The notes below the pieces were generated by a model. It was given only the letters and a program-made list of their open reading frames with translations. It made no database searches and was not told the DNA's origin. A program made the position numbers and the translations under genes. Shown here piece by piece: positions 43,028 through 59,233 of a stretch of DNA of 64,000 bases; the first letter of the stretch is position 1, and each line of letters opens with the position of its first letter. The stretch covers positions 63,124-127,123 of the forward strand of contig JBBDRO010000100.1 in assembly GCA_040905425.1 (NCBI GenBank), read 5' to 3'. This DNA is from Gemmatimonadota bacterium. Its GTDB lineage: Bacteria > Gemmatimonadota > Gemmatimonadetes > Longimicrobiales > RSA9.

Positions 43028-44059
43028 TCAAGGTGGCGGCTGTCCCGAGGGTGGCGGCGGTGGCGGCGGTGGTGGCGCTGTCCCGGGGTCCTCTCCCAAC
43101 CAGTAGGCGGGTCGATCGGGAAGCTCGCTGGCGCGCAGGCGCTCCAGCCGCTCGCGGTTGCGGCGCCGCCGCAGGTAGGTGAGCGCCACCACCAGCACGG
43201 CCAGGAAGGCCCACAGCACCACGCTCTGCGCCAGAAAGACCAGCCAGCCGTAGCGGCTCCGCACCCGCTCCAGCCAGAGCCGCTCGAACTGCGTGGAGGA
43301 GACAGCGTACGTGGCGCGCATGGCCTGCTCGAAGGAACCCGTGGCCCGCCAGCGCTCCAGGAACGGTCCGAAGCCGCTCCCCCCGCCCTGCTCCGCCAGG
43401 TAGCGGACGGCATCGGCGGCCAGGAGGTAGGCCACCCGGGCCTGGCTGGTCCCGCGCGGCCAGGCCAGCGTGAGCTCGTCCAGCGACGGGGCGCTGCCGG
43501 TCAGGAACGCCACCCTGAGCATCCATCCCGCCGCCGGATCCAGCTCGCCCGCGGCCCACGTGGCGTACCCCTCGGAGAACCAGCGCGGTACCGCCGCGCG
43601 GCCCACCCGACGCTGCAACCCCACGTGCGCCAGTTCGTGCTTGAGAATGCGGGCCAGCTCGTTCATGGCGGCCGTACGCGGCGCGTGCAGGGGCAGCACG
43701 ATGCGGCCCTCGAAGGGCAGCGCCACCCCCGCGCCCCACTCGGGGACCTGGCCGCCGGTCAACGCGTCGAAGGCCGCCTCGTCGGCCACCAGATGGATGT
43801 CCACCGTGTCGCCGCCCGGCCACCACCCCGCGGGGAAGCCGGGCAGCGGCAGGGCGTCCACCGCGCTCGCCAGCAGACGTTCGGCCAGTTCCCGCGCGGC
43901 GGCCGGCGCATACATGCGCATGCCGGGCCCGCGCAGCACGATGGTGGCGTCCTCCTGCCGGGCACCCGGTGCCGCGCGCCCGCCGAGGGGGGCAGCGGCG
44001 AAGAGCAGGAGAACGGCCGCGGCAACGACCCCCGTGCGGCGCGGACTACGCCTGCGCAC
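43028..44059 (-). CDS. membrane-anchored gluzincin-type (peptidase MA-like) metalloprotease
   Basis: Signal peptide; PEWGAGVA; KHELAH (HExxH); PRWFSEG; C-terminal TM followed by RRRR; overlaps the end of cheB. Confidence 0.75.
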   Translation of the reverse strand: MRRRSPRRTGVVAAAVLLLFAAAPLGGRAAPGARQEDATIVLRGPGMRMYAPAAARELAERLLASAVDALPLPGFPAGWWPGGDTVDIHLVADEAAFDALTGGQVPEWGAGVALPFEGRIVLPLHAPRTAAMNELARILKHELAHVGLQRRVGRAAVPRWFSEGYATWAAGELDPAAGWMLRVAFLTGSAPSLDELTLAWPRGTSQARVAYLLAADAVRYLAEQGGGSGFGPFLERWRATGSFEQAMRATYAVSSTQFERLWLERVRSRYGWLVFLAQSVVLWAFLAVLVVALTYLRRRRNRERLERLRASELPDRPAYWLGEDPGTAPPPPPPPPPSGQPPP

Positions 44060-44696
44060 GGCGGGCCAGGAGCCGCATCCTGGTGACCACGGCGGCGCCC
44101 AGTTCGCTCAGCGGCAGGACGAGCTGCGCGTGCTCCGCGGCGGCGCGCGGCATGCTGCCCATGGTGGCGCTGGCCTCGTCCTGCGCCACGGTCCAGCCCC
44201 CCGCCTCCCGGATGGCGCGCATGCCCTCCGCGCCATCCCTCCCCATGCCCGTCAGCACCACGCCCGCCCCCGCCGGACCGAAGTGGCTCGCCACGGCGTG
44301 GAACAACAGGTCGGCCGTGGGGCGTAGGCCGCCCACGGGGTCCCCGTCGAGCGCCGTGAAGACCACGCCGGCCGCCGTCCTGGCCAGACCCAGATGCGCA
44401 CCGCCCGGCGCCAGGTAGACGGTGCCGGAGCGGACAAGTTCTCCCGGCACGGCCTGGCGTACCGGGAGCGGCGTCAGGCCGTTCAGCCGGGCCGTGAGGG
44501 AGCGTGTAAAGAAGGCCGGGATGTGCTGGATGACGATCACGGCGGCGGGAAAATCACCGGGCAGCTCGGCGATCAGGCGGGCCAGTGCGGAGGGCCCACC
44601 GGTGGAGGCGGCCACGGCCACCGCCGCGACCGCCGGGGCCGATGCCGCCGGATCGGCATGCGGCGGCGACCCCCGGGTGGACTCAGAGTTCGACAT
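44046..44696 (-). CDS. cheB: CheB-type methylesterase, catalytic domain only (no receiver domain)
   Basis: Ser-His-Asp triad motifs AASTGGP, IQHIP and LTGMGRDGA; also APGG, AQDE and MPRAA. Confidence 0.9.
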   Translation of the reverse strand: MSNSESTRGSPPHADPAASAPAVAAVAVAASTGGPSALARLIAELPGDFPAAVIVIQHIPAFFTRSLTARLNGLTPLPVRQAVPGELVRSGTVYLAPGGAHLGLARTAAGVVFTALDGDPVGGLRPTADLLFHAVASHFGPAGAGVVLTGMGRDGAEGMRAIREAGGWTVAQDEASATMGSMPRAAAEHAQLVLPLSELGAAVVTRMRLLARRAQA

Positions 44697-45174
44697 CGGG
44701 CGCTCGCATGGAGCTTACCAGGAGGCGGCCGTCGGTCGTGTGCAGGAAGACCGAGCGGCCGTAGCCGCCGCCCACGTCCTTGGCCACGAGCGGGATGCGG
44801 ACAGCATCGAGCGCGCGCGTGGCGGCTGCCACATTGCGCTGTCCCAGGTTGCGGCGGTGCTCCTCCGCCACCGATTCGAACATGCTGGCCCCGCCAACCA
44901 GGCGGGCGCGCAGGCGGCCCGGGGCCGCGCCAGCCGTACGCATCTGGTCGATCAGGACCTGCACCGCTGTGGCGGCAAAGCGTCCCAGGGGCGTGGGGCG
45001 CCGTCCATCGGCGGGATCGGGCAGCATGGCGTGGGCCATCCCGCCCACACGGGCCTCCGGGTCCCACAGGGTGATGGCCACGCAGGATCCCAGACCCAGC
45101 GCACAGAGCACCTCCCCGCTACGCCCCACCTTCACCTCGCCGATGCGGACGGGGACGCGAATGGGCCGCGTCAT
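44683..45174 (-). CDS. cheD: chemoreceptor glutamine deamidase CheD
   Basis: LGLGSCVA, GGMAHAMLP, LVGGASMF, LGQRN, DVGGGYGR. Confidence 0.93.
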   Translation of the reverse strand: MTRPIRVPVRIGEVKVGRSGEVLCALGLGSCVAITLWDPEARVGGMAHAMLPDPADGRRPTPLGRFAATAVQVLIDQMRTAGAAPGRLRARLVGGASMFESVAEEHRRNLGQRNVAAATRALDAVRIPLVAKDVGGGYGRSVFLHTTDGRLLVSSMRAPDVEL

Positions 45175-46088
45175 GTACGGCGGTACACGCGTTCACGCGG
45201 GGCCACCGGGCTGAACAGTCCCGTGGCGCTACCGAAGAGGGCCTCCACCTTCCCCAGCACCAGGAATCCCCCTGGCGCCAGAGCCGCGTGAAGGCGGCGG
45301 AAGAGATCCTCCTGCACCCGCCGTTCGAAGTAGATGATCACGTTCCGGCAGAGGATGAGGTGCTGCTCGCGTGGGAAGGGATCGCGTAGCAGATCCAGCG
45401 GCCGGAAACGAACCCTGGCGTGCAGTTGCTCGTCGACCGTGCGTTGATCAGGGCCGCCGAACCAGCGCCGGCGCCGTCCCGCATCCAGATCACCCATGGC
45501 ATACTCGGCGTAGGTTCCGGAGGCGGCCGCGGCCAGCGCACCGCGGTCCACGTCGGTGGCCAGAATGCGGCAACGCTGCGGCTCCAGGCTGCCAGCACTC
45601 TCCTCCACGAGCATGGCCAGCGAATAGGCTTCCTCGCCCGCCGCGGTGCCCGCGCTCCACAGCCGTACCTCGCCCCGGACCACGGCCAGCTCCGGGACCA
45701 CCGCATCACGCAGGACCTTCCAGACCTCCGGATTGCGGAGAAACTTGCTCACGTTGATGGTCACGGCGTTCAGGAGCCGCTCGAGTTCCTCCGGCTGGCC
45801 CTCGAGCAACCGCTGGTAGGCGGCGTAATCGTGCACACCACAGGCACGCATGCGCACGGCCACGCGGCGCCGCATGCAGCGCTCCTTGTAGCTGGCGCAC
45901 GCCAGGCCGGTGCGGTTCTCCACGTAGCCCAGGAGGGCACCCAGCTCCGCCACTTCACGCTCGGTCAGCGGACCGTGCGCCAGCGGGAGGATGGCGTTCG
46001 GAGCGGCCCGGCGGTCCGCGGGCGGACGGACCACGCGGCCCGCCCGCGGGGGCGGCGTGGCGCCGTTGGCGCGCTCCTCAGCCGGCAT
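45171..46088 (-). CDS. cheR: chemotaxis methyltransferase CheR
   Basis: TINVSKFLRN, LWSAGTAAGEEAYS, ATDVD, ILCRNVIIYF, LAPGGFLVLG. Confidence 0.93.
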   Translation of the reverse strand: MPAEERANGATPPPRAGRVVRPPADRRAAPNAILPLAHGPLTEREVAELGALLGYVENRTGLACASYKERCMRRRVAVRMRACGVHDYAAYQRLLEGQPEELERLLNAVTINVSKFLRNPEVWKVLRDAVVPELAVVRGEVRLWSAGTAAGEEAYSLAMLVEESAGSLEPQRCRILATDVDRGALAAAASGTYAEYAMGDLDAGRRRRWFGGPDQRTVDEQLHARVRFRPLDLLRDPFPREQHLILCRNVIIYFERRVQEDLFRRLHAALAPGGFLVLGKVEALFGSATGLFSPVAPRERVYRRT

Positions 46089-47697
46089 GCTCCACGATCT
46101 CCAGATTGTTGCGCACCACGCGATTGTGCGGGTTGAGCTCCAGGGCGCGGGTCCAGTGGCGCACCGCCTCCTCCCGCTGCCGTCCCTTGTAGAGCACATT
46201 GCCCATCTTGGCGTGCAGGTCATCCCCCAGGTCGGGATCCAGCTCGGCGGCGCGCTGATAGTGCTCCAGGGCGTCCTCGTGGAGGCCGCGCCGATAGATC
46301 ACGTCCCCCAGGTTCTTGTGTGCCTGCGCCAGGCCGGGCTCTTCCTCTGAAGCGCGCCGATAACAGGCCTCCGCATGATCCAGGTTGCCACGCCGCTCGT
46401 GCACCAGCCCAGCCAGGAGGTGGACAGAGGCGGCATTGGGATGCGCCTCGACCGCCTCACCGGCCAGCGCGGCGGCACGGTCCAGGTCCCCGCCAAGCGC
46501 CGCAGCGAGCCCCGCGAAATGGTAGTACTGGGGAGAGGGCACCGCCGTGCCCAGCCGCCTGCGATACTCGGCATAGGCCTCGGCCGCTTCCGCGGGCCGC
46601 AGGGCATGGGTGAGCGTGAGGCCGCGTGCCAGCGCCACGGTCGGCGTGCCCGCCCGCAGCGTCTCCGCCTCATCCAGCACCAGGAGAGCGTCATCGAAGC
46701 GCTCCAGCGCGCGTAGGGAAACGGCCAGATTCACGAAGGCGGCGAACTGCGGGCCGTGATCCTCCAGCAGGGACTTGAGCTGCCGCACCGCGGCGCGGTG
46801 GCGGCCGTCGCGCATGGCGGACAGCGCCAGATGGAAGCGGGCGGAGAGATCGTGCGGTTCCAGTTCCAGCACCCGCCCGAACTCACGCTGCGCATCCTCC
46901 AGCATGCCTGCGCGGAAGAACGCGGTCCCCAGGTTGCGGCGCTCCGCCAACTCCGCCGCCTTGCCGCGGCCACCCTCCTTTTCCTTGCGGCGCCCCACCC
47001 GATGGCAGAATCCCGCCTGGATGAGGCCGAAGAGCGCCTGCCCCACGGTGAACTCCACCAGCCCGCTCTCGTCCACCAGATCCTGAACGCTGCGCTCCCC
47101 GTCCAGCAGCAGGACAATGCGCTGCTGCTCCGCGGTGAGTTCCACATCGGAGGTGAGCAAACGCTCACTCTCCACTTCGAAGACCAGATCCAGGGAGGGG
47201 ATCTTCTTCTCGATCAGGCTCCACTCGTCCACCCGGCGGGCGGCCTCCAGCAGGAGACTCTCCGGATTGATGGACACCAGGATGTCCGCCGAGTCGGGCT
47301 GCTCCCCCACCTCGAAGTAGAAGCTGCCGCGCGACCAGGTGAAGAGATGGTAGATGGCCTCTTCGATCTGCAGCCGGACGTAGCGCTCCAGATCCGCGCT
47401 GGTGATGTGGCCCTGCTCCACGAGCAGCTCTCCCACGCGGCGGTCAGGCTGCTGTGTCTGCAGCGCCAGTACCGCCTCGAGCTGCTCCTGCGTGAGGACG
47501 TCGTCGCGCACCAGGAGATCACCCAGGCGGTCCCGTCGGTTCACGACCTGTGCATACGTGATGCGGCCGGCTTCGAAGTAGATCTGACCGAAGCGCGAGC
47601 GATCCGTAACGGAAAGGCAACCGGTCTTCTGACCGAGCGCCAGGAGCTGGCACACGTCGGCCAGACTGGCCTCCTTCAGACTCCCCTTGATGGCCAT
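46078..47697 (-). CDS. DUF4388 / MshEN-like / wHTH-like / TPR protein
   Basis: MAIKGSL..SLADVCQLL..KTGCL, GSFYF and SLLLEAARRVDEW (DUF4388-type); internal RLGDLL...Q and RVGELL...Q motifs; multiple TPRs. Confidence 0.85.
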   Translation of the reverse strand: MAIKGSLKEASLADVCQLLALGQKTGCLSVTDRSRFGQIYFEAGRITYAQVVNRRDRLGDLLVRDDVLTQEQLEAVLALQTQQPDRRVGELLVEQGHITSADLERYVRLQIEEAIYHLFTWSRGSFYFEVGEQPDSADILVSINPESLLLEAARRVDEWSLIEKKIPSLDLVFEVESERLLTSDVELTAEQQRIVLLLDGERSVQDLVDESGLVEFTVGQALFGLIQAGFCHRVGRRKEKEGGRGKAAELAERRNLGTAFFRAGMLEDAQREFGRVLELEPHDLSARFHLALSAMRDGRHRAAVRQLKSLLEDHGPQFAAFVNLAVSLRALERFDDALLVLDEAETLRAGTPTVALARGLTLTHALRPAEAAEAYAEYRRRLGTAVPSPQYYHFAGLAAALGGDLDRAAALAGEAVEAHPNAASVHLLAGLVHERRGNLDHAEACYRRASEEEPGLAQAHKNLGDVIYRRGLHEDALEHYQRAAELDPDLGDDLHAKMGNVLYKGRQREEAVRHWTRALELNPHNRVVRNNLEIVEHAG

Positions 47698-47719: not shown

Positions 47720-49504
47720 TCATTCGCCCTCCTCCAGCGGTACGTCCTGATGGCCGGGCCAGTCCCAGAGCGCCTTTTCACGGCTCGTGAACCAGTGGTC
47801 CAGCGCCCCCCCCCGCCCCACCAGGGCGCCAGCTTCCCGCGGCGCGGGATCGGCGATGGGACGCAGACCCGCTGGCGCGGCCACCGGCTCCGTCCCGGAG
47901 GCCTCCTCATCCACGCTGCCGGAGGCGGTGAGTTCCACCACCAGCCCGGTCTCGAGGCGCCCACGGAGCCGATCCTCCAGGCCGTCGATCAAAGCCGGCG
48001 GGCCGGCGGCGCTGAAGAGCAGACGGGCCCCCGCACGACGTAGATGGTCGAAGAGGTGGAAGAGCTCCTCCTGGGCGCCCTCGGTGTCCGCCAACTCGTC
48101 CACGTCGGGCATGACCAGTACCCCCACCCGGCGCAGCCGGGCGCGCCAGGCCTCTACACCGTCGTGACCGAGCGCGTCCACCAGTTCGGAAGCAAATTCA
48201 CGGCCTGGCAGCCAGGCCACGGTGAGCCCCTTCTGCAATTCCGCGATCTCGCGTGCCACGGCGGCCAGCACACGCTCGGCCAGTTCCCGGTCCCCGTGCA
48301 GGAAGTAGGGCACGTACCGGTCTCCGGTCCCCTGGGCCACCGCCGCACCGGCGCGCACGGCAAGATGGTTGGCGGGCAACGGCAACTCGGCCAACGTGGG
48401 CCCGGGTGGCGGCCGGGGCACGGGACGGGTGCGCGCCTGCACGGCCACCAGCAGTCCTTCCGCCTCCGTCACCCGCGCCGGGTCGCGCAGCACGTCGGTG
48501 CGCTCCAGCTCCGGGGCGTCACCCTCCGCTTCACGAATGAGGCGGGCCACGGTGCGCAGCCGCTCCACGCGTGACGCGAACCCCGTCAGGAACGCCTCCA
48601 CCGCGGCCTCGGCCGGCGGGCTCGCCAACGCCTCCTCAAGCAGGCGGGTGCGGAAGCCCTCCCCCTCCCAGCGGAGGATGGCCTCGGCCAGTTTGGCCTC
48701 GCTGCCGCCCGGCGAGACCACCTGACCGATCGTGCCGGTGATCTCCGTCAGGAAGGCGCCGAACTCGTCGGGACCGCGCCGGTCCAGGGCCAGGCCGAGG
48801 AGACGACCCGCCTCCTCCATGCTCACCTGGCGGCCCTCCAGTTCCTGGATGGCCAGGATCCGGTTGAGTGCGCCCTGCAGCTCCCGCACGTTCGCGAAGG
48901 CGCCGCGCGCCAGGGCCTCCGTCACCCCATCGCCGAGGGCCTGCCCGCGCTCCTCCGCCTTGCGGCGCACGATGGCCGCGCGGGTCTCCATGTCAGGCGG
49001 TGCCAGATCCGCTATAAGCCCCCCGGAGAAGCGGCTGAGGAGCCGATCGTCCAGTTCGTCGATCTCCGTGGGCGGACGGTCGCTGGCCAGCACCACCTGC
49101 CCGCCGCGCGACGCCATGCCGTCCCACGCCCGCAGCAACTCCTCCTGAACGGCTCGCCGTCCCGCCAGGAACTGGATATCGTCGAGCAGGAGGAGATCCG
49201 CGGCGTGGATCCGCTCCCGGAAGGCATCGCGCTGCCCGGACCGGATGGCACTCATCACGCCCTCCACCAGATGCTCCATGGTGTCGTAGGTGATGCGCAG
49301 GTCCGGATGGATGGTGCGCGTATGCTGCCCGATGGCCATGACCAGGTGCGTCTTGCCCAGCCCCGAGGCACTGTAGAGGAAGAGCGGGTTGTAGGCGGAG
49401 CCGGGCGTGTCGGCAACGCGCCGCGCTGCCGCAGCCGCGAGACGATTGGACGTCCCGACAATGAAGCTCTCGAAGGTGAGACGAGGGTCCAGCTCCAGCG
49501 ACAT
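47720..49504 (-). CDS. DnaA/Hda-like protein with two tandem AAA+ domains and no DNA-binding domain IV
   Basis: TFESFIVG.SN, YNPLFLYSASGLGKTHL, LLLLDDIQFL, QEEL, SDRPP, RLLSRF, NVRELQGAL; a second degenerate copy N.LA...YVPYFLHG...QEELFHLFD...LEDRLRGRL. Confidence 0.88.
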   Translation of the reverse strand: MSLELDPRLTFESFIVGTSNRLAAAAARRVADTPGSAYNPLFLYSASGLGKTHLVMAIGQHTRTIHPDLRITYDTMEHLVEGVMSAIRSGQRDAFRERIHAADLLLLDDIQFLAGRRAVQEELLRAWDGMASRGGQVVLASDRPPTEIDELDDRLLSRFSGGLIADLAPPDMETRAAIVRRKAEERGQALGDGVTEALARGAFANVRELQGALNRILAIQELEGRQVSMEEAGRLLGLALDRRGPDEFGAFLTEITGTIGQVVSPGGSEAKLAEAILRWEGEGFRTRLLEEALASPPAEAAVEAFLTGFASRVERLRTVARLIREAEGDAPELERTDVLRDPARVTEAEGLLVAVQARTRPVPRPPPGPTLAELPLPANHLAVRAGAAVAQGTGDRYVPYFLHGDRELAERVLAAVAREIAELQKGLTVAWLPGREFASELVDALGHDGVEAWRARLRRVGVLVMPDVDELADTEGAQEELFHLFDHLRRAGARLLFSAAGPPALIDGLEDRLRGRLETGLVVELTASGSVDEEASGTEPVAAPAGLRPIADPAPREAGALVGRGGALDHWFTSREKALWDWPGHQDVPLEEGE

Positions 49505-49511: not shown

Positions 49512-50141
49512 CTAGGTAGTGGCTGCGCCCGTCGGCGGCGCTTCGATCTTCTGACGGAAGCGGCGCGACAGGCTCTGCAACGTGAGCTGGCTGACCGCCT
49601 TCAGGGTGTCGAAGACGCCGTCCCCGGTGAGCGCCGCGGCCGGGAACGCCGGTACGTCACGAAAGTTCAACGTGTCATCCAGGTCGGCCACGCTCATGAT
49701 CCCCGGCAGGTCCCGCTTGTTGTACTGCAGGACCATGGGGAAGTCTTCCAGCTCCACGTTTTCCTCCAGGAGATTCTCGTGGAGATTGCGCAGACTGTCC
49801 ACGTTCTCCTCCATCTTCTCCCGCTGCGAATCGGCCACGAAGACCACGCCGTCGGCCCCGCGCAGTACCAGCTTGCGGGTGGCGTTGTAGTACACCTGAC
49901 CGGGCACCGTGTACAGTTGTACGCGCGTCCGGAACCCTGAGATCGTGCCCAGGTCGAGCGGCAGGAAATCGAAGAAGAGCGTGCGGTCTGTCTCCGTGGC
50001 CAGGGAGACCATGGGTCCCTTCCGCTCGTCCGGCACGTACGCGTGCACGTACTGGAGGTTGCTCGTCTTGCCGGACCGCCCCGGCCCGTAATAGACAATC
50101 TTGCAGGTGATCTCACGGGTGGAATAATTGACCAGGGACAT
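49512..50141 (-). CDS. mglA: MglA-family small Ras-like GTPase
   Basis: KIVYYGPGRSGKTSNL, TETDRTLFFDFLP (catalytic Arg), YTVPGQ, NKRDL; closely resembles my recollection of Myxococcus/Thermus MglA. Confidence 0.95.
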   Translation of the reverse strand: MSLVNYSTREITCKIVYYGPGRSGKTSNLQYVHAYVPDERKGPMVSLATETDRTLFFDFLPLDLGTISGFRTRVQLYTVPGQVYYNATRKLVLRGADGVVFVADSQREKMEENVDSLRNLHENLLEENVELEDFPMVLQYNKRDLPGIMSVADLDDTLNFRDVPAFPAAALTGDGVFDTLKAVSQLTLQSLSRRFRQKIEAPPTGAATT

Positions 50142-50657: not shown

Positions 50658-51004
50658 TGCAGCCCCGCCGCCGCGCGCTCGGCCTCAACGCGGATCATAC
50701 CCAGCTGAGCGTCGGATTCGGCGATGGCCACCACCACGAGCGGACCCGCGCCCGCCATCACCACATGGCCGCCCGCGGCCTCGAGCTGTACGGCCGTGAG
50801 CGCACCCATGGAACCGGCGGCCGTGGCATGGCCGGCCCGTTGGAAGAGGGAAGCGGCCAGGGCCGCCAGCGGGCCACCGTCCACGCCGGCGGCCAGTTCG
50901 GCGGTCACCGGGACACCCGTCTCGGCCTCCACCACCATGGCGCCCCGTACACCCTGTACACGGGTGAGGGCGGCAACAGCCGCATCGAACGCGTCGGGAT
51001 TCAT
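50654..51004 (-). CDS. Roadblock/LC7 domain protein
   Basis: VQGVRGAMVV...GVPV, LAALAASL, AQLGMIRVE; ATGA overlaps on both sides. Confidence 0.85.
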   Translation of the reverse strand: MNPDAFDAAVAALTRVQGVRGAMVVEAETGVPVTAELAAGVDGGPLAALAASLFQRAGHATAAGSMGALTAVQLEAAGGHVVMAGAGPLVVVAIAESDAQLGMIRVEAERAAAGLQ

Positions 51005-51978
51005 GCGTAGCTCTCCAGGAAGCGGCTGGCCAGTTCGCGCGCCCGCGCGGCCCCGCGCATCACCCATCCCACGGGCGCATCGCGCCGGGCCGCCAGGACC
51101 ACCACGGTATCACCCGGAGCCGGCGCCAGGTGCAGCAGGGCCACCTCCGTGTGCAGCAGGATGCCCTCCCATGCGCCCAGGCTCAGGTGCTCGGCCGTGC
51201 GAGCCGCTTCCTCCACGGCGTCGCCCAGACCGGCGCCCAGCCCTTCCGCCGAGGCATCGGCCGGCTCCCGCAGCGTGCCCGCCAGGATGAGGCCCTGCGC
51301 ATCCAGCAGCAGCGCGCCGAGCACCGGCCCGCGCATCACGGCGTCGAAGAGGCGCGTGGGGTCCTCGGCCAGGACCGCCGCGTGCGCCGCGTGCGCCGCG
51401 TGCGCCGCCTCCGCCGCCTCCACCGCCGCCGCGTCGACGGGCGGAGACGGCCGCGGGGCGGGAGCCACCTCGGCCGCCGCGGCCCCGGAGGGATGGCCGT
51501 CGGCGCCATGGCCCGCGGTCGTGGTGCCACCGAACGGATCCGGCGCGGCCTTGACCTTGCGCGCCTCCTGACGCTGCCGCAGCAACTGCAGCGCCTCCCG
51601 CACCGCGGGATCGGCCGGCCGGGTCAGCGCGGCCGCTTCCAGATGCTGCCGCGAACGCTCCAACTCGCCCGTCTCAAGGTAACAGAAACCAAGACCGCGC
51701 AGCGCATCGAAGTTGCCGGGGTCCAGGCGCAGCACCATGGACCACTCGTCCGCGGCGCGCTCCCGATCCCCCGCTTCCAGGTAGAGCAGCGCCAGCAGCC
51801 CGTGACCCTCCACGTTCATGGGGTGCGCTTCCAACCCGCGCAGGCAGAGATTGAGTGCGGCGTCGCGCTGCCCCTGGCGCCGGTAGGCGCGGGCCAGCGG
51901 CAGGAACGCCAGCGAGCCGGGGTCACTGGCCACCTCCTGGCTCCAGCGTTGCAGATCCGCCGTCACGGGTCGCGTCAT
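51001..51978 (-). CDS. TPR + Roadblock/LC7 fusion protein
   Basis: N-terminal TPRs (FLPLARAYRRQG, VLRLDP); Ala/Pro/His linker; C-terminal VLGALLLDAQGLILAG...PVGWV Roadblock domain. Confidence 0.82.
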   Translation of the reverse strand: MTRPVTADLQRWSQEVASDPGSLAFLPLARAYRRQGQRDAALNLCLRGLEAHPMNVEGHGLLALLYLEAGDRERAADEWSMVLRLDPGNFDALRGLGFCYLETGELERSRQHLEAAALTRPADPAVREALQLLRQRQEARKVKAAPDPFGGTTTAGHGADGHPSGAAAAEVAPAPRPSPPVDAAAVEAAEAAHAAHAAHAAVLAEDPTRLFDAVMRGPVLGALLLDAQGLILAGTLREPADASAEGLGAGLGDAVEEAARTAEHLSLGAWEGILLHTEVALLHLAPAPGDTVVVLAARRDAPVGWVMRGAARARELASRFLESYA

Positions 51979-52009
51979 TGCCACTCCTCGTTGCCGCCAT
52001 GCAGGAAGC

Positions 52010-53134
52010 TCATCGGGCCCCGCTCTCGACCACCCGCGTCAGCACGCGCAGGGCGGCCAACCCCTCATCCACGACCTTCCGCTCATCACCATCGGGCATC
52101 AGGCGCAGGTAGGTGTCCCATGCGCGCGCGCCGCGCTCCAGGTCCCCGGTGCGCACGGCCGAGAAGCCCAGGCGGAAGTGCCCTTCGGTGGAGAGCGGAT
52201 CCAGCCCCACGGCCCGTGCGTAAGCCTCCGTTGCCGCGCGCATGCGCCGCTGCGCCTCCAGGGCCCGACCCGCCAGCAGGGCAATCTCCGCGTGCTCGGG
52301 GTATGCGGTCTCGAGTTCCGCGGCCAGTTTCTGCGCCTCCTCCACACGGCCGTCGGCCAGGTGTTGCTCGGCCCGCGCCATGGCCTCCCGGAGCTCACCT
52401 TCCGGTACGTGGCTGCGCTGCTCCTGCACCTGCAGCACACCCGTGCTCACCAGTCCGTAGATCGTCTTGGCCACGTCGAACGCGCTGCGTCCCAGGTCCG
52501 CCGCGATCTGCCGGATATCCCGGTGCGCGTCGATTTCCGCGAGCACCTCCCACTCCTCCGTGCGCAGGTCGAGCGGCGCCGCCTCGCGCTCGGCGGCCGG
52601 GGCCAGCACCGGCACCGCCTCGGGACCGGGCACCTTGGATTCCAGCCGCGTCCATTCATCGATCCGCCGGGCACCCTCCATGAGCAGCGACTCCACCCGC
52701 ACCTGGGCCAGCAGGCGGCCCTGACCGATGCCGGCACGCTCCTCGAAGCGGAAGTACCCCTCGTCCCAGCCCATCAGTTCGTAGACGGTCTCCTCCATCT
52801 GGAAGCGGAGTTGCCGCTCCAGTTCTTCCTCCGTGATGCTCCCCATCTCCAGGAGGATCTCGGCCAGTCGGCGCGTGGGGTCGGTGCGCTGCAGTTCGAG
52901 CGCGCGATCCAACTCCCGCTGCGTGAGTCGACCGGCCCGGATGAGCAGCTGCCCCAGCCGCCGCGGCGAGCGCCGCCGTACCGCGAACACGATGGCGCCC
53001 CGACTGAAGTGGACGATGGCCTCGTCGTTCAAACGATCCGAGCGAACCGTCAGCACGCCGGTCTTGTGCGCCAGTTCGAGGAGCTGGAGCACGTCCTGGA
53101 TGCTGAGTTCCTCGAGGGGCCCCTCGATGGCCAC
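52010..53134 (-). CDS. DUF4388 / MshEN-like / wHTH-like / TPR protein
   Basis: GTG start; AIEGPLEELSIQDVLQLL..KTGVL; RLGQLLIRAG...Q; GYFRF; SLLMEGARRIDEW; C-terminal TPRs. Confidence 0.85.
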   Translation of the reverse strand: MAIEGPLEELSIQDVLQLLELAHKTGVLTVRSDRLNDEAIVHFSRGAIVFAVRRRSPRRLGQLLIRAGRLTQRELDRALELQRTDPTRRLAEILLEMGSITEEELERQLRFQMEETVYELMGWDEGYFRFEERAGIGQGRLLAQVRVESLLMEGARRIDEWTRLESKVPGPEAVPVLAPAAEREAAPLDLRTEEWEVLAEIDAHRDIRQIAADLGRSAFDVAKTIYGLVSTGVLQVQEQRSHVPEGELREAMARAEQHLADGRVEEAQKLAAELETAYPEHAEIALLAGRALEAQRRMRAATEAYARAVGLDPLSTEGHFRLGFSAVRTGDLERGARAWDTYLRLMPDGDERKVVDEGLAALRVLTRVVESGAR

Positions 53135-53147: not shown

Positions 53148-55841
53148 CTACGTGGCCGCGACCGGCGCCGCGCCCGGCGCCGCGCTCTGGAGCCGCTCCA
53201 GCGCAGCGCTGGCGTCCGCGTTGCCGGGGTCGAAGCCGAGGGCGCGCCGATAGGCCACGCGCGCCTTGCCGTGCATGCCGGCATCCTCCAGCACCGCCCC
53301 CAGGCGAACCAGACCCTGGAGGTGGTAGGGATCCACCGTGAGGAGATCCACCAAGGCGGCGATGGCCTCGCGGTGGTGCCCGCGCCCGCGCTCGACCTCC
53401 GCCAGCCCGAGCGCGGCCTCACCGTAGCTGGGCAGGACCGCCAGCGCCACGCGGTACTCCGCCGCCGCCGCCGCCGCGTCCCCCCGCCGCGTCAGCACCC
53501 GTGCCAGAGCCGTGCGCGCCGCCGGCGCGTCCCCGCCACGCTCCAGAGCGTCACGCAACGCCCGCTCGGCGCGGGCCGTTTCGCCGGCCTCCAGGGCGGC
53601 GCGACCGAGCTGCGTGAGCAGGCCGGGATTGGCCGGTCCGGTGTCCACGGCCTCCTCCAGGACCAGCATGGCCCGGCCGTGGTCGCCCACCTGGGTCAGT
53701 CCCTCCGCCAGCGTGCGCAGCGCCACCACGTCACCCGGGAACAGCTCGGTGAGTCGCTCGGCCGCCTCCACCGCTTCCCGCGGCCTGTCGAGCTGGAGCA
53801 GCGAGCGGGCGGCGCCGAGCAACGCCCTGCCGAGGGCGGCCTCGCCCTCGTCGTCCTCGTCGCTCGCCGTACCACCTCGCGCCACCTCGGCCAGGGCGGC
53901 CTCGAAACGCTCCACCGCCTCACCCGCCGCGCCGCGGCGCAGGAAAGCCTCACCCTGCAGAAGGAGGCCCTGCACCCGGGGGCCGCCCTCCTGGATCATG
54001 TGCAGGGCCTCACGCTGCACCGCCTCCAGGTCTCCCCGGTCGAGCGCGGCCTGCGCCGCGGCCAGCCGGCTCCGGCCGCCCGCGGGGGAAGCGGCCTGGC
54101 CCGAACCCTCCCGGGCAAAGACCGAATCCAGCTCGCCCGCATCAGGCACGAAGGCCTCGATGGGCTGCCCGGGGCGGACCTCCTCCGCCGCGTCCAGCTC
54201 GGGCGCCAGCACGCTCGTCTCCTCGTACTGCAGGTCGATGAGCAGCCGGTGGCGCGCGGGGGGGATGAAGGGGCTCTTCTCCAGGGCGTGCCGGGTCTCC
54301 CGCAGCGCACCCTCGTAGTCCCCCAGTGCGGACAGGGCGAACGCCAGGTTGTAGCGTGCCTCGGCCAGGTCGGGGTCGAGCTCTACCGCGCGTACGAGAG
54401 CATCGCGCGCTCCGGAGGCATCGCCACCCTCCATGAGCGCGGCGCCCAGCCCGGCCCAGGCGGGGGCGGCGCCGTCATCGGCCTGCAGGGCCACGCGAAA
54501 GGTCTCGACCGCCTCGCCATGGCGGCCGGCGCGTTGCAGCAGGAGCGCCAGGTTGCGGGCCACGTCGGCCGTGGCCCGTCCGCCCTCGAGTGCTCGCCGC
54601 AGCAGTTGCTCGGCCGGCTGCGGCCGCCCCTGGTGCAGCTCCGCGACGGCCAGGTTGTTCAGGACCAGGACGTAACTACCGTCCAGTTCGAGCCCGCGCC
54701 GGTAGGCGGCCGCGGCACCGTCCAGATCCCCCTGCTGGTGCCGCGCCACGCCAAGCTCGTTCCACAGCTTGGGAGAATCAGCCTGCTGCCGCGTGAGCGC
54801 CTCGTAGAGACTGACGGCTTCCGCGTCCCCCCGCAGCAGCAGCATCTCCGCCTGGGCCTGCTGCACCAGTTGAGCGTCCTCCCCCCTTTCCGTGGCCAGG
54901 CGGAACTCCCGCAGCGCCTCGTCGAAAAGCGCCTTCTGCCGGAAGGCAATGCCCAGATTGTAGTGGGCCAGCGCCGCGTTCTCGGCCACGGCGGGTCCCT
55001 CGCCACGCTCGCCCACCAGCTCCTGATACCGGGCGTTGCTGTGGCTGTCCAGGGACAGATTGGTCTCGGCGCGGGACAGTGACGGGTTGAGCTCGGACGC
55101 ACGGGCCGCAGCGCTGCCCGCCTGTTCCTCCATGCCCAGGTCACCGTAAACGAAGGCCAGGAGGTGATGCGCCTCCGCCAGCGACGGCTGGAGCTGGACC
55201 GCCATCTCCAGCGGTCCCCGCGCCTCGGCGCTTCGTCCCTGCTGGTACTTCACCTCCCCCATGAGGAGGTGTGCGCGGGCGTTCGAAGCGTCCAGCGCCG
55301 CCGCGTTGCCCAGCGCCACCAGCGCCTCGTCCGGACTGCCCCGCCGCAGCTCGGCGCGCGCCAGCATGAGGTAGACGGCGGCGTCGCGCGGACGACCCGT
55401 CTGGACGGCACGCCACTCACGCACCGCCGCCTCGGCGTCCCCCGAATGGTAGTAGGCGCGCGCGAGCCGCTCCCGGGCCACGAGGTCATCGGCGTCGCGA
55501 GCCAGCGCGGCGCGGGCATCGGCCACCAGCCGCTCGAAGTAGCCGGTGCCGAAGAAGACGATGCGCAGATTGCGCTCCGCCACCTGCATGCGGGGATCCA
55601 GTTCGAGGGCGCGCTCGAACTGTTCCGCGGCATCCCCGAAGAGTCCCTTGTGATAGTAGACCACGCCCAGGTTGTTGTGGGCGTTCGGGTCATCCTGCTT
55701 GATACGGCGGGCCAGGCCGCGGAGCAACTCGGCGTCCCGCTCCGAACGCGGCTGTGCGCCCTGGGGCCGGCTGCGCGGACCGTCGCCTCGATCCCGCCAG
55801 GGAAGCGTGGGCTGCTGCGGCTCGGGCCGGGGCGTACTCAC
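53148..55841 (-). CDS. large cytoplasmic TPR repeat protein (897 aa)
   Basis: Many canonical TPRs (AHNNLGVVYY...ALELDP, AHYNLGIAF, LWNELGV, ARYNLAF); no signal peptide; ATG overlaps the cheC stop. Confidence 0.9.
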   Translation of the reverse strand: MSTPRPEPQQPTLPWRDRGDGPRSRPQGAQPRSERDAELLRGLARRIKQDDPNAHNNLGVVYYHKGLFGDAAEQFERALELDPRMQVAERNLRIVFFGTGYFERLVADARAALARDADDLVARERLARAYYHSGDAEAAVREWRAVQTGRPRDAAVYLMLARAELRRGSPDEALVALGNAAALDASNARAHLLMGEVKYQQGRSAEARGPLEMAVQLQPSLAEAHHLLAFVYGDLGMEEQAGSAAARASELNPSLSRAETNLSLDSHSNARYQELVGERGEGPAVAENAALAHYNLGIAFRQKALFDEALREFRLATERGEDAQLVQQAQAEMLLLRGDAEAVSLYEALTRQQADSPKLWNELGVARHQQGDLDGAAAAYRRGLELDGSYVLVLNNLAVAELHQGRPQPAEQLLRRALEGGRATADVARNLALLLQRAGRHGEAVETFRVALQADDGAAPAWAGLGAALMEGGDASGARDALVRAVELDPDLAEARYNLAFALSALGDYEGALRETRHALEKSPFIPPARHRLLIDLQYEETSVLAPELDAAEEVRPGQPIEAFVPDAGELDSVFAREGSGQAASPAGGRSRLAAAQAALDRGDLEAVQREALHMIQEGGPRVQGLLLQGEAFLRRGAAGEAVERFEAALAEVARGGTASDEDDEGEAALGRALLGAARSLLQLDRPREAVEAAERLTELFPGDVVALRTLAEGLTQVGDHGRAMLVLEEAVDTGPANPGLLTQLGRAALEAGETARAERALRDALERGGDAPAARTALARVLTRRGDAAAAAAEYRVALAVLPSYGEAALGLAEVERGRGHHREAIAALVDLLTVDPYHLQGLVRLGAVLEDAGMHGKARVAYRRALGFDPGNADASAALERLQSAAPGAAPVAAT

Positions 55842-56455
55842 ACGAGCCTCAGCGCCCGGAGCATGGCCTCCAGCGACGCGTCATCCGGAATGAGCAGGAA
55901 GTGGGCGCCCATCTCCGTTTTACCGTCCAGCATGAGGTCCGTATTCATGACGAAGACAAAGTCCTGGTCCGCACCGAAATTCACATAGCTGGTGGACAGC
56001 ACCGCGCCCACCATGTCCATGGCAAAGGAGGGCACGGACATGATGAGCAGCATGCCCATGAACTCGGAGAGCGCGTTCAGGTAGGCGCCCACGATGATGT
56101 TGCCCACCTCTTCCAGGATGGACTGCTCGGCCGGTCCGAGATCACGTGGGAACTCCAGGCCCTTGCGGCCTCCCATGATCTCCACCAGTACGGCGGCGGT
56201 GCCAGCGGGGAAAAGCTGGAGGGTTCGTCCGGTGACGTCCCCCAGGACCTTCATCACCACGGCGGAGACGGGCTCCTGGGGGTCGCCCATGGCCGAGGAA
56301 ACATCCTCGAGTGCCACTACCTTCACCTCGGGCACTGACACGGTGATGGCCCGCGTGGTCATGTCCGACAACGCCGTGGCCGCGTGCCCCGCGCCGATAT
56401 TGGCGATCTCGCGGAGCGCGGAGTACTGGATCTCGGTGAGGCCGCGCACGTCCAT
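55838..56455 (-). CDS. cheC: CheC-family CheY-P phosphatase
   Basis: Two ExxN active-site motifs: LREIANIGAGHAATALS and LEEVGNII...YLNAL. Confidence 0.92.
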   Translation of the reverse strand: MDVRGLTEIQYSALREIANIGAGHAATALSDMTTRAITVSVPEVKVVALEDVSSAMGDPQEPVSAVVMKVLGDVTGRTLQLFPAGTAAVLVEIMGGRKGLEFPRDLGPAEQSILEEVGNIIVGAYLNALSEFMGMLLIMSVPSFAMDMVGAVLSTSYVNFGADQDFVFVMNTDLMLDGKTEMGAHFLLIPDDASLEAMLRALRLV

Positions 56456-56459
56456 TCGA

Positions 56460-58271
56460 TCAGCTCACACTCAGGGGGTCCAGCACCAGGGCGGGCCTGC
56501 CATCCGCCAGCAGCGTGGCGCCGGAGAAGAGCGGCAGCGCCCCCACGCCCGGATGGAAGGCCTTCACGAGGATCTGCTCGCGGCGTACGATCTCGTCCAC
56601 GCCCAACGCAAAGCGACGTTCGCCCGACTCGGCCACCACCGCCGCCCGCTCGCCCCCCTCCGGATCCACCCCCAGGACGGCGCGCATGCGGATGAGCCGG
56701 ACCGGCTCGTCACGCAGTACGAGCCATTCCCCCGTGCCGTCCACGCGCACCGAAGTGAGGGCAAAATCCACCGCCTCCGATACGTGCGTGAGCGGCACGG
56801 CGTAGATCTCCTGGCCCACCCGCACCTGCAGGGCGGGCGCCACGGCCAGCGTGAGCGGCAGCCGCATCACGAAGTCGGTGCCCTGCCCCGTCCGGGTCCG
56901 CATGTCGATAGCGCCGCCGAGCGCGCGCACACGGTTCACCACCGCGTCCAGCCCCACCCCACGGCCTGAGACCTCCGTCACCGCGGCGGCCGTGGAGAAG
57001 CCGGGGTGGCTGAGGATCCGAAAGAGCTCGTCGTCTTCCAGCACGCCGTCGAAATCGGCGGGCAGGATGCCACGCTCCTGTGCGCGTTCCACCACCGTCT
57101 CCTGATGCACGCCGCCGCCATCGTCCTGCAGGGTGATCCGCACGCTCGTGCGCTCGCGCTCGGCGGCCAGGCGGATCTGCCCGCGGGGAACCTTGCCAGC
57201 GGCACGGCGCGCCTCGTTGCCCTCCAGGCCGTGGTCTACGGCGTTGCGCAGGAGATGGACGATGGGATCCACGATCTCGTCGAGGATGGCACGGTCGAGT
57301 TCGATGTCCTGCCCCTCCATGACCAGTTCCACGTCCTTGCCGAGCGAGCGGGCCGCGTCCCGCACCACGCGGGGGAAGCGCTGGAAAACGTCGGCCACCG
57401 GGACCATGCGCATCGAGAGCACTGCGTGCTGCAGCTCGGACGCCACGGTACTGATGCGGGAAGCGACGTCCCCCATCCCGTTCACGGCGGCTACGTCCAG
57501 CTCTCCGGCATACTCCGCCAGCCGGCCCTGCAGCACGGCCAGTTCCGCCACGCGCTCGGCCACCTCGTCGAGGCGCCGCTGATCCACGCGCACCTGGGTA
57601 GCGGTGGCCCGAGCCGGACCGGACCGCCCGGCCGCCTGCGAGTCCCCCCGCTCGACCGTGGCGCTGGCCACCTCCCCCGCCGCGCGCAGCGCCACCGTGA
57701 CGGCCTCCGCGTCGGCATCCTCCTCGAGCAGAACCAGAAAACGTCCGTCGAAGGCCTCGTCGAACTCCGCGGGTAGCGTACCTACGACTCCTCCCACCGC
57801 GCGCGCCGCGACCACCGCGAGCAGCGCGCGCGCGGCTTTGATGGGCGCGTCCTCTTCCAGGCGCACGCGCACGGCGGGCACGCCGGCCGGGCGGGCCGGT
57901 CCGGCACGGTCCCGCCCCGCGGTCCCCGCGGGTGCGGCCGCGGCGGCCACGTCGGGTGACGGATCCAGCGCGGCGGCCTGGAGCCGGTCGGCCGCGGCCA
58001 GCAAGGCGTCCACGAGTTCCGGGTCCACCTCCAGCGTGCCAGCACGCACCGCGTCCAAGCGGTCCTCGAGCGCGTGTGCCTGCTCGGTCACCAGGGTGTA
58101 GCCCATGCTCGCGGCCATCCCCTTCAGGGTGTGGGCGGCACGGAACGCCGCGGCCACCGCCTGGCGCGCCTCCTCCCCGCCCGCTTCCAGGGCCAGGATG
58201 CTCTGGGTCAGCCGCTGCAGATGCTCTTCGGCCTCGGCTGCGTAGAGGGCGCGGAAGCGGTCGACATCCAT
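56460..58271 (-). CDS. cheA: chemotaxis histidine kinase CheA
   Basis: HPt FRAAHTLKG; RMVP; HLLRNAVDHG; DDGGG; GFST; SGRGVGLD; C-terminal CheW domain. Confidence 0.96.
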   Translation of the reverse strand: MDVDRFRALYAAEAEEHLQRLTQSILALEAGGEEARQAVAAAFRAAHTLKGMAASMGYTLVTEQAHALEDRLDAVRAGTLEVDPELVDALLAAADRLQAAALDPSPDVAAAAAPAGTAGRDRAGPARPAGVPAVRVRLEEDAPIKAARALLAVVAARAVGGVVGTLPAEFDEAFDGRFLVLLEEDADAEAVTVALRAAGEVASATVERGDSQAAGRSGPARATATQVRVDQRRLDEVAERVAELAVLQGRLAEYAGELDVAAVNGMGDVASRISTVASELQHAVLSMRMVPVADVFQRFPRVVRDAARSLGKDVELVMEGQDIELDRAILDEIVDPIVHLLRNAVDHGLEGNEARRAAGKVPRGQIRLAAERERTSVRITLQDDGGGVHQETVVERAQERGILPADFDGVLEDDELFRILSHPGFSTAAAVTEVSGRGVGLDAVVNRVRALGGAIDMRTRTGQGTDFVMRLPLTLAVAPALQVRVGQEIYAVPLTHVSEAVDFALTSVRVDGTGEWLVLRDEPVRLIRMRAVLGVDPEGGERAAVVAESGERRFALGVDEIVRREQILVKAFHPGVGALPLFSGATLLADGRPALVLDPLSVS

Positions 58272-58281
58272 GGAGGTCGGT

Positions 58282-58644: not shown

Positions 58645-58678
58645 GGTTCCTCGATGGGATGGTTCGTGCGGCGGCGCC

Positions 58679-59171
58679 TCATGCGGCCAGCAGCCGTTCG
58701 ATGAGCGCATCGGGGTTCAGCAGCAGCGCGCGGTGCCCGGCCAGTTCCGCCACGCCCAGGACGTCCCCGGGTTCGAGCCCCATGCCGCGGAGTTCGTCCT
58801 CGTCGAGCGCCGCCCAGTCGGCGGCGCCCGGCGCCCCCCGGAGCCATCCGGAGCACTTCCTCCACGGCCAGAGCCAGCGGGCGCTCGCCGTCGTCCACGA
58901 AGACGAGCCGGTGCCCCGGCCGCGCGGCGGCCGGCCGTAGGCGCAGCACCACGCCCAGGTCACAGACGGTGACTACGAGGCCGCGCAGCCCTACCAGCCC
59001 GCACACTTCCGGACCGCAGCCGGGCAGCCGCGTGACCGGCCGCGGCGTGGTGATCTCGCGCACCCGGTCGAGCGGCAAGCCAAGCCGGTGGCCGTCACAC
59101 GTGAGCAGCACCCAGCGCGGTAGCGGGGCCGTGGTCGATCCCCCGTCGGACGTGACCGCCGTGCTCTCCAT
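58679..59171 (-). pseudogene. cheW: CheW adaptor, frameshifted at a G6 run (58834-58839); real lesion or sequencing error
   Basis: The N-terminal CheW part (VREI..PVTRLPG..VCGLVGLRG.VVTVCDL..ALAVEEV) is in one frame. The C-terminal part (VLGVAELAGHRALLLNPDALI) is in another. Deleting one G fuses them. Confidence 0.85.
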
Positions 59172-59203
59172 CGATCGTCCGGCTCAGGGTTCAGTGAGGG
59201 CGC

Positions 59204-59233
59204 AAGATAGCGCGCCGCGAGCGAGCGGGTCAA
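59204..59233 (-). promoter_or_regulatory. sigma70-type promoter for the che/mgl operon
   Basis: TTGACC-18bp-TATCTT, ending 32 bp upstream of the cheW ATG. Confidence 0.6.

Follow-up and report, generated by a model that had tools for sequence, protein, structure and literature searches.

The window analysed here is a stretch of 64,000 nucleotides located on contig C100 of a sediment Gemmatimonadota bacterium (G000), whose assembly comprises 4.12 Mb in 115 contigs and is 96.7% complete. It contains an operon of 16 genes, all encoded on the minus strand between positions 43028 and 59171, in which a chemosensory (Che) pathway is interleaved with genes coding for an MglA-type GTPase, Roadblock proteins, tetratricopeptide repeat (TPR) proteins, two proteins carrying the DUF4388 domain, which is the PATAN domain, and an ATPase related to the replication initiator DnaA. 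Each of the products matches the family stated for it in Table 1 (Pfam). The phosphorelay and the GTPase are thus encoded in one locus, as an earlier note on this DNA had held, and the GTPase is a bona fide MglA in which the catalytic motifs are kept.

Organisation of the operon and state of its chemosensory arm

The genes follow each other very closely: the gaps between them are 34, 10, 4, 13, 25, 30, 7 and 22 nt, the largest being 34 nt, and seven gene pairs overlap by 4, 4, 4, 11, 4, 14 and 14 nt. The starts were chosen from the translations, and all these distances depend on the start codons so selected. Overlaps are also present at both borders between the che genes and the embedded cassette, namely 4 nt between cheC and the gene of the 897-aa TPR protein and 11 nt between the second PATAN-TPR gene and cheR. 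The G+C content of the window is about 72%, and for this reason it holds many spurious open reading frames (ORFs). The earlier note had counted 15 or 16 co-oriented genes, with gaps not above 35 bp, behind one predicted promoter, and both the gene order that it gave and the promoter-like site ahead of cheW are borne out (Table 1). Between positions 42400 and 59700 the promoter consensus is matched twice (0.7 +/- 0.8 matches expected); the second match, at 49801-49773, lies inside mglA and was taken as chance. No convincing terminator-like site was found by the sequence scan downstream of the peptidase gene.

Table 1. Features of the operon and of its upstream promoter-like site, in the order of transcription (positions of the window).
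Feature	Position	Strand	Basis
Promoter-like site TTGACC-18 nt-TATCTT	59204..59233	-	Consensus scan, 9/12 positions; 33 nt upstream of cheW start; not proof of function
cheW, frameshifted as assembled	58679..59171	-	CheW 65 bits, profile positions 2-90 only
cheY, single receiver domain, 120 aa	58282..58644	-	Response_reg 106.6 bits
cheA, Hpt + P2 + dimerisation + HATPase + CheW-like domains, no fused receiver	56460..58271	-	Pfam
cheC-type CheY-P phosphatase	55838..56455	-	CheC 71.8 bits in 2 stretches; CheX 32.6 bits
897-aa all-TPR protein	53148..55841	-	Multiple TPR families (Pfam)
PATAN(DUF4388)-TPR protein 1	52010..53134	-	DUF4388 109.6 bits
TPR + C-terminal Roadblock-like protein	51001..51984	-	TPR families; Robl_LC7 19.6 bits, below 23-bit cut-off
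Small Roadblock/LC7 protein, 116 aa	50654..51004	-	Robl_LC7 25.1 bits
MglB-like Roadblock protein, 161 aa	50172..50657	-	Robl_LC7 35.7 bits
mglA	49512..50141	-	M. xanthus MglA 6h17, E 3e-76
Tandem DnaA-domain-III ATPase	47720..49504	-	Bac_DnaA 273.7 bits in 2 stretches
PATAN(DUF4388)-TPR protein 2	46078..47697	-	DUF4388 134.8 bits
cheR methyltransferase, no TPR	45171..46088	-	CheR 154.9 bits; CheR_N 45.1 bits
cheD	44683..45174	-	CheD 94.8 bits
cheB, methylesterase domain only, 216 aa	44046..44696	-	CheB_methylest 188.8 bits, no Response_reg match
Peptidase_MA_2 zinc peptidase, last gene	43028..44059	-	Pfam 42.5 bits

Within the chemosensory arm, CheY aligns with CheY from Thermotoga maritima (1tmy, E 6.6e-49), and its identity to the proteins of the relatives (77-87%) is the highest in the operon. 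The che ORFs other than cheW are full length when compared with those relatives. As for cheW, the ORF at 58626-59171 covers only positions 2-90 of the 138 positions of the CheW profile, beyond which it continues as an arginine-rich tail. The reading frame changes between about 58800 and 58850, an interval that contains a run of six G residues (58834-58839), and the conserved C-terminus of CheW (…LLLNPDALIERLLAA and stop) is undamaged in the +1 frame, ending at 58679. Among the Logan contigs listed, those of X1, probably the source run, and of a second sample, X2, end at 58817/58815 and start again at 58835/58837, and none of those listed spans 58818-58834. Since the listed contigs of both samples break there, the assembly graph is unsettled at this position, and an error of assembly, heterogeneity between strains or a genuine lesion could each explain the shift.

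The second peculiarity of this arm is the absence of the receiver (REC) domain from CheB, for which Pfam reports the methylesterase only. In all the relatives with cheB (15/15) a receiver-like match is found by tblastn just before the methylesterase, and the three products scanned with Pfam (3/3) contain both domains. In Escherichia coli, CheB without its receiver is active without CheA input; if the receiver-less CheB of the window behaves in the same way, adaptation would run without feedback. Besides, in three relatives (L033, L041 and L046) REC-CheB is followed by two more CheW genes or by one tandem CheW-CheW protein, and in L041 and L046 a TPR gene of about 287 aa is located between the extra CheW gene(s) and the peptidase gene. 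The window operon, which is without the two extra cheW genes, is a trimmed copy of an operon that is larger in its relatives.

Between the contigs of a second strain (X2) and the window, 87 single-position differences were counted in the stretch compared, and the 40 of them that are listed were assessed one at a time. Synonymous changes account for 31 of these 40, and for all of those falling in cheB and cheD (11/11; cheD alone 9/9). Because the listed differences are mostly synonymous, the operon genes, receiver-less cheB included, look maintained by purifying selection. This bears on the idea that the chemosensory arm is eroding towards the reduced form of the locus found in family f2 and no longer signals, so that only the MglA, DnaA-like and PATAN part would be functional. 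Such a reading could account for the frameshift of cheW as assembled, for the absence of the CheB receiver, the two cheW genes and the TPR gene of the relatives, for the degenerate second Walker A motif of the DnaA-like protein in the window, L034 and five f2 loci (7/19), and for the presence of a single receptor in the genome. Nevertheless, it is considered very unlikely, in view of the full length of the other che ORFs, the synonymous nature of every listed strain difference in cheB and cheD and the intact CheW C-terminus in the +1 frame, and because the break of the listed contigs of two samples at the shift may reflect assembly error or strain heterogeneity.

The peptidase encoded by the last gene has a HELAH motif, hydrophobic segments at its N- and C-terminal ends and a proline-rich tail, as read from the translation. 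One contig of strain X2 (n=1) is 9 bases shorter at 43050, in a run of proline codons, a polymorphism that alters the length of the peptidase tail behind the last hydrophobic segment and leaves the frame intact.

GTPase, DnaA-like and PATAN-TPR proteins

Residues 1-193 of MglA align with MglA from Myxococcus xanthus (6h17), and the P-loop, the switch-I stretch TDRT with its arginine and the TVPGQ and NKRD motifs are retained; R53 and Q82 are the residue numbers that we assume for MglA. The Thr78 signature of MglA, that is TxxGQ in place of DxxGQ, is named in the available text of PMC3000849. The gene located 30 nt upstream of mglA codes for an MglB-like protein related to M. xanthus MglB (6h5b_B, E 1.8e-8), and the best solved relative of the small Roadblock protein is the Roadblock/LC7 chain 9jue_D (E 1.1e-6). 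The TPR-Roadblock protein aligns with its relatives over residues 3-325, and the 897-aa TPR protein does so over nearly its full length, with identities of 35-52%. From the position of its gene, the latter is a candidate MglA effector or scaffold.

The gene coding for the DnaA-like protein starts 7 nt after mglA. Residues 5-233 of this protein correspond to domain III of Bacillus subtilis DnaA (8bv3, E 1.2e-57), and Walker A, Walker B, sensor I, the box VII arginine and sensor II are all present in this first half. No Pfam match to DnaA domain I or domain IV is obtained, only Bac_DnaA, AAA and IstB_IS21 being listed. The second AAA+ core contains a box-VII-like RLRxRLExGLVV motif in 19 of the 19 sequences aligned, and its Walker A is intact in 12 of them; the other seven are the proteins of the window, of L034 and of five f2 loci. 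The structural model (pLDDT 84, pTM 0.45) comprises two folded cores and a helical linker; residues 529-577 are disordered and precede a C-terminal tail with the consensus SREKxVWxWP…EE, in which W582 and E591 are invariant.

The tail and the second PATAN-TPR protein were chosen for complex modelling because their genes are adjacent in 20 of the 20 loci compared. Residues 550-594 of the DnaA-like protein, modelled with the full-length PATAN-TPR 2, gave a score of 0.80 (runs 0.78, 0.81 and 0.80), the best of three controls reaching 0.01. The same score mark is attained by 116 of 157 solved complexes and by 2 of 215 mismatched pairs, counts that are rough because own alignments were used for the pair. 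At least 75% of the contacts are common to the runs, and the pLDDT of the partner is at least 61. The tail (residues 568-591) runs in the model along the TPR groove of PATAN-TPR 2 (residues 284-531), where the contacting residues Q458, K461, D465, G491 and D493 vary little or not at all among the aligned sequences. Complexes of a peptide in a TPR groove are common among solved structures, and part of the result may therefore reflect likeness to known structures. With this reservation, the model supports a predicted docking of the tail in the groove of PATAN-TPR 2.

The PATAN part of PATAN-TPR 2 was also modelled (pLDDT 88.8). Foldseek gave no match in the PDB at E <= 0.001 for this model; its weak rows, chains of the GATOR1/SEA complex (E about 0.01, TM 0.26), were explained by the winged-helix part and discarded. 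The beta-sheet core of the domain is formed by residues 1-51 and 125-130, and residues 161-237 form the winged helix (8adl_S: Z 9.5, rmsd 2.4 A, 74 residues). The helical insert between the two parts of the sheet, residues 55-114, superimposes (VIA-align) on the N-terminal domain of Vibrio cholerae MshE with bound cyclic di-GMP (c-di-GMP) (5htl_B: Z 9.3, rmsd 2.2 A, 59 residues, 34% identity) and on the GSPII-B domain of Thermus PilF with the same ligand (8pdk_A: Z 8.2, rmsd 1.9 A, 57 residues). Z values of this size are common for helical bundles, and for that reason the sequence motif was checked as well. According to the available part of PMC5013675, MshEN domains contain a tandem 24-residue motif, RLGxx(L/V/I)(L/V/I)xxG(L/V/I)(L/V/I)xxxxLxxxLxxQ, with a spacer of 5 residues. 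A pair of such motifs is found in PATAN-TPR 2 (10/11 and 8/11 positions) and in PATAN-TPR 1 (10/11 and 9/11), separated by 6 residues. Both stand at the same positions, with a spacer of 6 or 7 residues, in 18 of the 19 PATAN-TPR 2 sequences aligned, the window included, and the protein of L039 has no second motif at that position. The Pfam MshEN model does not match either PATAN protein at E <= 0.01.

Model and motif together suggest that the helical insert of the PATAN domain resembles the c-di-GMP-binding MshEN module, a link that is new: the equivalence of PATAN and MshEN was not found stated in the available portions of the MshEN and PATAN literature. It is plausible, on these grounds, that both PATAN-TPR proteins are putative c-di-GMP sensors. 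The coupling to c-di-GMP that the earlier note had proposed is thereby backed beyond the DUF4388 label, by a predicted fold and a tandem motif of MshEN type, and it stays putative. Related to this, the genome contains 11 GGDEF matches, from which it follows that the cell makes c-di-GMP, and its PATAN domains are confined to the window operon.

Distribution within the phylum and genomic surroundings

A search was carried out in 301 genomes of the phylum, among which the unpublished G157 is one unit in the tallies only. The DnaA-like query detects the true DnaA everywhere and, in many genomes, a longer second match. Around the best-scoring second matches with enough flanking sequence, 20 loci were retrieved, which is a biased choice, and their content was established by tblastn with the window proteins (E <= 1e-6). 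In this neighbourhood survey, which the earlier note had proposed, synteny turned out to be kept within one class of Gemmatimonadota. The locus is complete in 14 of the 20, belonging to families f1, f4 and f5, with the same order: che genes, TPR, PATAN, Roadblock, MglB and MglA genes, DnaA-like gene, PATAN-TPR 2, cheR/D/B and peptidase. One more (L034) follows this order until its contig ends. The remaining five, all from f2, contain only the genes of the DnaA-like protein, PATAN-TPR and peptidase. The peptidase gene is the end of the operon in all 20, reduced loci included. At the threshold used, the window queries did not find the leading cheW in five f4 loci (L040, L042-L045), cheR in four f5 loci (L048-L051) and at least one Roadblock gene in L044, L045, L047 and L049-L051.

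The reduced loci are informative as to how the operon has changed. In L035 the genes ileS and rluD lie directly upstream of the DnaA-like gene, and these are the window's own flanks (Pfam); L038 has ileS upstream, no rluD match by Pfam, and two unassigned ORFs in between. From these two reduced loci, the ones annotated with Pfam, it follows that the che and mgl genes were lost (or gained) as blocks at one chromosomal site. The trio formed by the DnaA-like protein, PATAN-TPR and the peptidase is a separable core, kept where che and mgl genes have been lost. After the peptidase gene, L035 carries a gene (2050-4668) for a REC domain fused to an ABC-F type ATPase, and L038 one (15696-17099) for a REC-sigma54 activator.

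A less biased count was obtained with PATAN-TPR 2, orthologs being accepted at E <= 1e-80, full length and single copy. They are present in 202 of the 301 genomes (f1 5/6, f2 11/47, f3 4/4, f4 121/125, f5 56/69, f6 1/1 and f8 3/3) and were not found in f7 (0/23) or f9-f12 (0/22). Conservation across Gemmatimonadota, as the earlier note had it, therefore holds in part: the gene order recurs in f1, f4 and f5 of one class, while the ortholog fails to appear in f7 and f9-f12. MglA matches occur in 237 of the 301 genomes, usually two in each, and methyl-accepting chemotaxis proteins (MCPs) track the families with che-mgl loci (f4 118/125, f5 64/69; f2 1/47, f7 0/23). In a wider set of genome contigs, 16 of the 80 loci listed for the DnaA-like query come from Gemmatimonad* metagenome-assembled genomes, and most of the others align over only about 700 nt, as a true dnaA would. 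A protein atlas returned only clusters named DnaA or Hda for the same query, mostly from Gemmatimonadota.

There is another way of understanding the locus, in which the DnaA-derived ATPase and PATAN-TPR would constitute an unknown kind of switch: the WxWP tail would sit in the TPR groove, and assembly or disassembly governed by ATP and c-di-GMP would set polarity. The core would then work with or without Che and MglA, and it would be the hub for phosphorelay, GTPase and second messenger in most members of the class. This proposal, which builds on the predicted docking and on the MshEN-like insert, is a real but doubtful possibility.

Regarding flagella, FlhA is matched in 77 of the 301 genomes, in 75 of them over the cut-off. 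The carriers of a che-mgl locus considered here number 16, that is the window, the 14 complete loci and the one cut by its contig end. FlhA is present in six of these genomes (G266, G027, G029, G103, G257 and G277) and gives no match in ten (G000, G179, G042, G062, G057, G125, G066, G134, G104 and G040). The CheA of the operon is the only one in four of the five flagellated carriers checked (G266, G027, G029 and G277), G103 having three. A single CheA is likewise found in four of the five non-flagellated carriers checked, G104 having two; in G000, G042 and G062 it is the operon's own, and in G179, whose operon contig is cut, it lies on a different contig.

These data suggest that the Che core is an ordinary one, probably flagellar in its ancestry, and they invite the explanation that the che genes amount to no more than the lineage's general chemotaxis operon, flagellar in origin, the mgl/PATAN/DnaA-like cassette being independent and receiving no signal from it. 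The similarity of CheY to that of T. maritima points in this direction, as do the presence of CheC and CheD, typical of such pathways, the sole CheA of G266, G027, G029 and G277, and the existence of the core without che in f2. We regard this explanation as improbable. Neither FlhA nor flagellin is matched in the source genome (96.7% complete), the ten carriers without FlhA keep their che genes and MCPs are common in those families; moreover, genes of both kinds overlap by 4 and 11 nt across the borders between them, and three families retain the interleaved order. Since the Che core is kept with MCPs in non-flagellated lineages, it must have another output there, and the interleaved cassette is the obvious candidate.

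In the source genome itself, CheW domains and the H-kinase_dim match, corresponding to one CheA, are confined to the window operon, and since these domains occur nowhere else the operon is the only Che pathway of the organism. The genome has one MCP (C52:7839-9626), with HAMP and MCPsignal domains and two hydrophobic segments, which lies outside the operon among seemingly unrelated histidine-biosynthesis and ABC-transporter genes. The term receptor-less used in the earlier note is therefore right for the operon and wrong for the cell, which possesses this orphan MCP. About 3 kb from it, a gene at C52:12500-14755 codes for a protein that begins with a receiver-like part and also has a weak GGDEF and an EAL domain, and could link the phosphorelay to c-di-GMP breakdown. 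Two further adjacent pairs of cheB-like and cheR-like genes were seen by tblastn outside Che operons (C31:31631-33001 and C53:23723-25162).

A stand-alone second mglB-mglA pair is located on C65 (L132:7468-8670), immediately behind ybaB-recR. The MglA encoded there shares 58% identity with that of the operon, and of the two it is the more similar to M. xanthus MglA (E 4e-89). The true dnaA is presumably represented by a separate match to a DnaA domain on C19. On C26 there is a cluster of pilB (MshEN and T2SSE domains), pilT and pilC, and eight T2SSE matches are found in the whole genome. Upstream of this cluster and of a helix-hairpin-helix gene lies an ORF of 2192 aa with a weak SprA_N match (32.5 bits; L133:448-7026). 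The earlier note had called the locus self-contained, a description that has to be given up, as the receptor is encoded on C52, another mglB-mglA pair on C65 and pilB-pilT-pilC, the likely output machinery, on C26.

The operon of the window is preceded by a rluD-like gene and ileS, and a cytochrome-like ORF is found about 400 nt downstream of it. The small ORF at 42021-42626, downstream of the operon, contains CXXCH-type haem motifs and gives weak multihaem-cytochrome matches, and a gene for an M1-family peptidase is present at 39107-40879. Between the stop of the rluD-like gene and the promoter-like site (59300-59372) there is a short tandem direct repeat, ccggcgcccggcccgctagccac, in 2-3 copies, at which the Logan contigs fragment; one contig in each of two samples has an extra A behind 59338.

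Possible function and relation to known systems

The reading that we favour, with confidence somewhat above even, is that the operon encodes a Che-driven MglA polarity switch for type IV pili, serving twitching or surface motility rather than flagella. The orphan transmembrane MCP would signal through CheW and CheA to CheY; CheC would reset CheY-P, and CheR, CheD and CheB would adapt the receptor, CheB escaping CheA feedback for want of its receiver. CheY-P would then act on the embedded module, and its likeliest target would be a PATAN-TPR protein, because PATAN and receiver are fused in the cyanobacterial regulators of PatA type. MglA, MglB and the two further Roadblock proteins would mark the active pole, with the 897-aa TPR protein as likely effector. 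The two PATAN-TPR proteins may read c-di-GMP by means of the MshEN-like insert and contact PilB and PilC as Synechocystis PATAN does. Finally, the DnaA-derived ATPase, its tail held in the groove of PATAN-TPR 2 according to the model, would add an ATP-dependent step of assembly or timing; the ATPase timer proposed in the earlier note is likewise a hypothetical role.

The association with pili draws on previous work. In Synechocystis, PATAN is a chemosensory output domain that binds PilB1 and the N-terminus of PilC, and mglA/mglB genes often neighbour PATAN genes (available text of 10.1101/2021.06.11.447907). The accessible portion of Wuichet and Sogaard-Andersen (2014, PMC4316618) indicates, besides, that some mglA genes of groups 1 and 5 adjoin PATAN genes.

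Several observations weigh against this pilus-directed switch. No pil gene is present in or beside the operon, and the pilus link is drawn by comparison with Myxococcus and Synechocystis. If the frameshift in cheW is real, receptor coupling may be broken, and the extra cheW genes of the relatives are missing as well. CheY is of the classical Thermotoga type, and in the four flagellated carriers that have no CheA besides that of the operon, flagella too are probably driven by this pathway. The core survives in f2 without che and almost without MCPs, so it does not need Che input. As for c-di-GMP, the spacer of the motif pair is of 6 residues and not of 5, and the Pfam MshEN model fails to recognise the insert.

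The switch might be Che-driven and have an output other than pili, for instance gliding, polar growth or budding, choice of the division site, or the secretion of an adhesin or polysaccharide that the terminal peptidase would process. In Myxococcus other tasks are carried out by MglA paralogs, the neighbourhood of the operon is devoid of pil genes, the operon always closes with the gene of a membrane-anchored peptidase of the MA clan, the core is kept in genomes without che, and the weak SprA_N protein of 2192 aa is encoded beside pilB-pilT-pilC. This alternative is nonetheless judged rather unlikely: the only partners of PATAN known from experiments are PilB1 and PilC (available text of 10.1101/2021.06.11.447907), M. 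xanthus MglA activates pili with TPR effectors (available parts of PMC7519303 and PMC7668184), and the fold of the MshEN-like insert is that of the N-domain of pilus ATPases.

The closest known systems help to place the switch for type IV pili that we favour. As in Myxococcus Frz with MglA/MglB (and MglC and RomR), a Che-type pathway and MglA/MglB would belong to one circuit of pole choice, with TPR proteins downstream and extra Roadblock paralogs. Frz is characterised by a fusion of CheA to a receiver (FrzE), a CheR-TPR protein (FrzF) and a cytoplasmic receptor (FrzCD), whereas here CheA is not fused to a receiver, CheR is devoid of TPR and the MCP, which has a HAMP domain, spans the membrane; for these reasons the operon is not an ortholog of Frz. 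It also has no RomR-like gene, and adds PATAN-TPR proteins, the DnaA-like ATPase and the peptidase. The che and mgl genes are interleaved here in one operon, while in Myxococcus the Frz and MglA systems are encoded apart (available text of PMC4316618).

With the cyanobacterial Tax/Pix systems and their PatA-type regulators (PATAN-REC) the operon shares a PATAN domain in a chemosensory pathway, and in Synechocystis, as far as the available text of the source goes, PATAN sets the direction of pilus-based movement. In contrast to these systems, PATAN has TPR here as its fusion partner instead of a receiver, which is provided by a separate CheY, and MglA, Roadblock and DnaA-like proteins are co-encoded. 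The operon thus resembles both Frz with MglA/MglB and Tax/Pix with PATAN and PilB in its working, and is a member of neither. Regarding the MshEN domains of V. cholerae MshE and Thermus PilF GSPII-B, the likeness consists of a four-helix module with the tandem 24-residue RLGxx..Q motif and 28-34% identity; the module is inserted here in the PATAN beta-domain instead of being N-terminal on a secretion ATPase, with a spacer of its own length and at least one motif position changed. With DnaA and Hda, the DnaA-like protein shares all the motifs of domain III in its first half, but that domain is duplicated, there is no match to domain I or IV, and the linker, the disordered stretch and the WxWP tail are added.

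The actinobacterial conservons (CvnA-D) are also conserved operons, in which a sensor kinase is combined with a Roadblock protein and a GTPase of the MglA family (available text of PMC4316618), although the kinase type, the GTPase group and the partners differ, and Che, PATAN and DnaA-like parts are absent from them. The neighbourhood of mglA/mglB and PATAN genes has been noted before (Makarova et al. 2006; PMC4316618, as far as accessible), and in the accessible portions neither che genes nor a DnaA-like ATPase are mentioned with it. Full-text searches, a scope to which subscription-only papers, Makarova et al. 2006 and table S2 of PMC4316618 are external, brought up no description of an operon with che, mglA, PATAN and DnaA-like genes. 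The statement of the earlier note that this combination had no functional description is in line with that search.

The crosstalk between Che pathways and MglA is still debated in Myxococcus, and here one operon, kept across a large class of soil and sediment bacteria that has hardly been studied, gathers the whole circuit and provides a list of candidate connectors: the PATAN-TPR, Roadblock and TPR proteins. Two new ideas arise from it. According to motif and model, PATAN domains may carry a c-di-GMP site of MshEN type; and a copy of a replication-initiator ATPase may, as the complex model predicts, have been reused in signalling, docked on a TPR scaffold. The fact that Che pathways outlive flagella in this class points, moreover, to a non-flagellar output.

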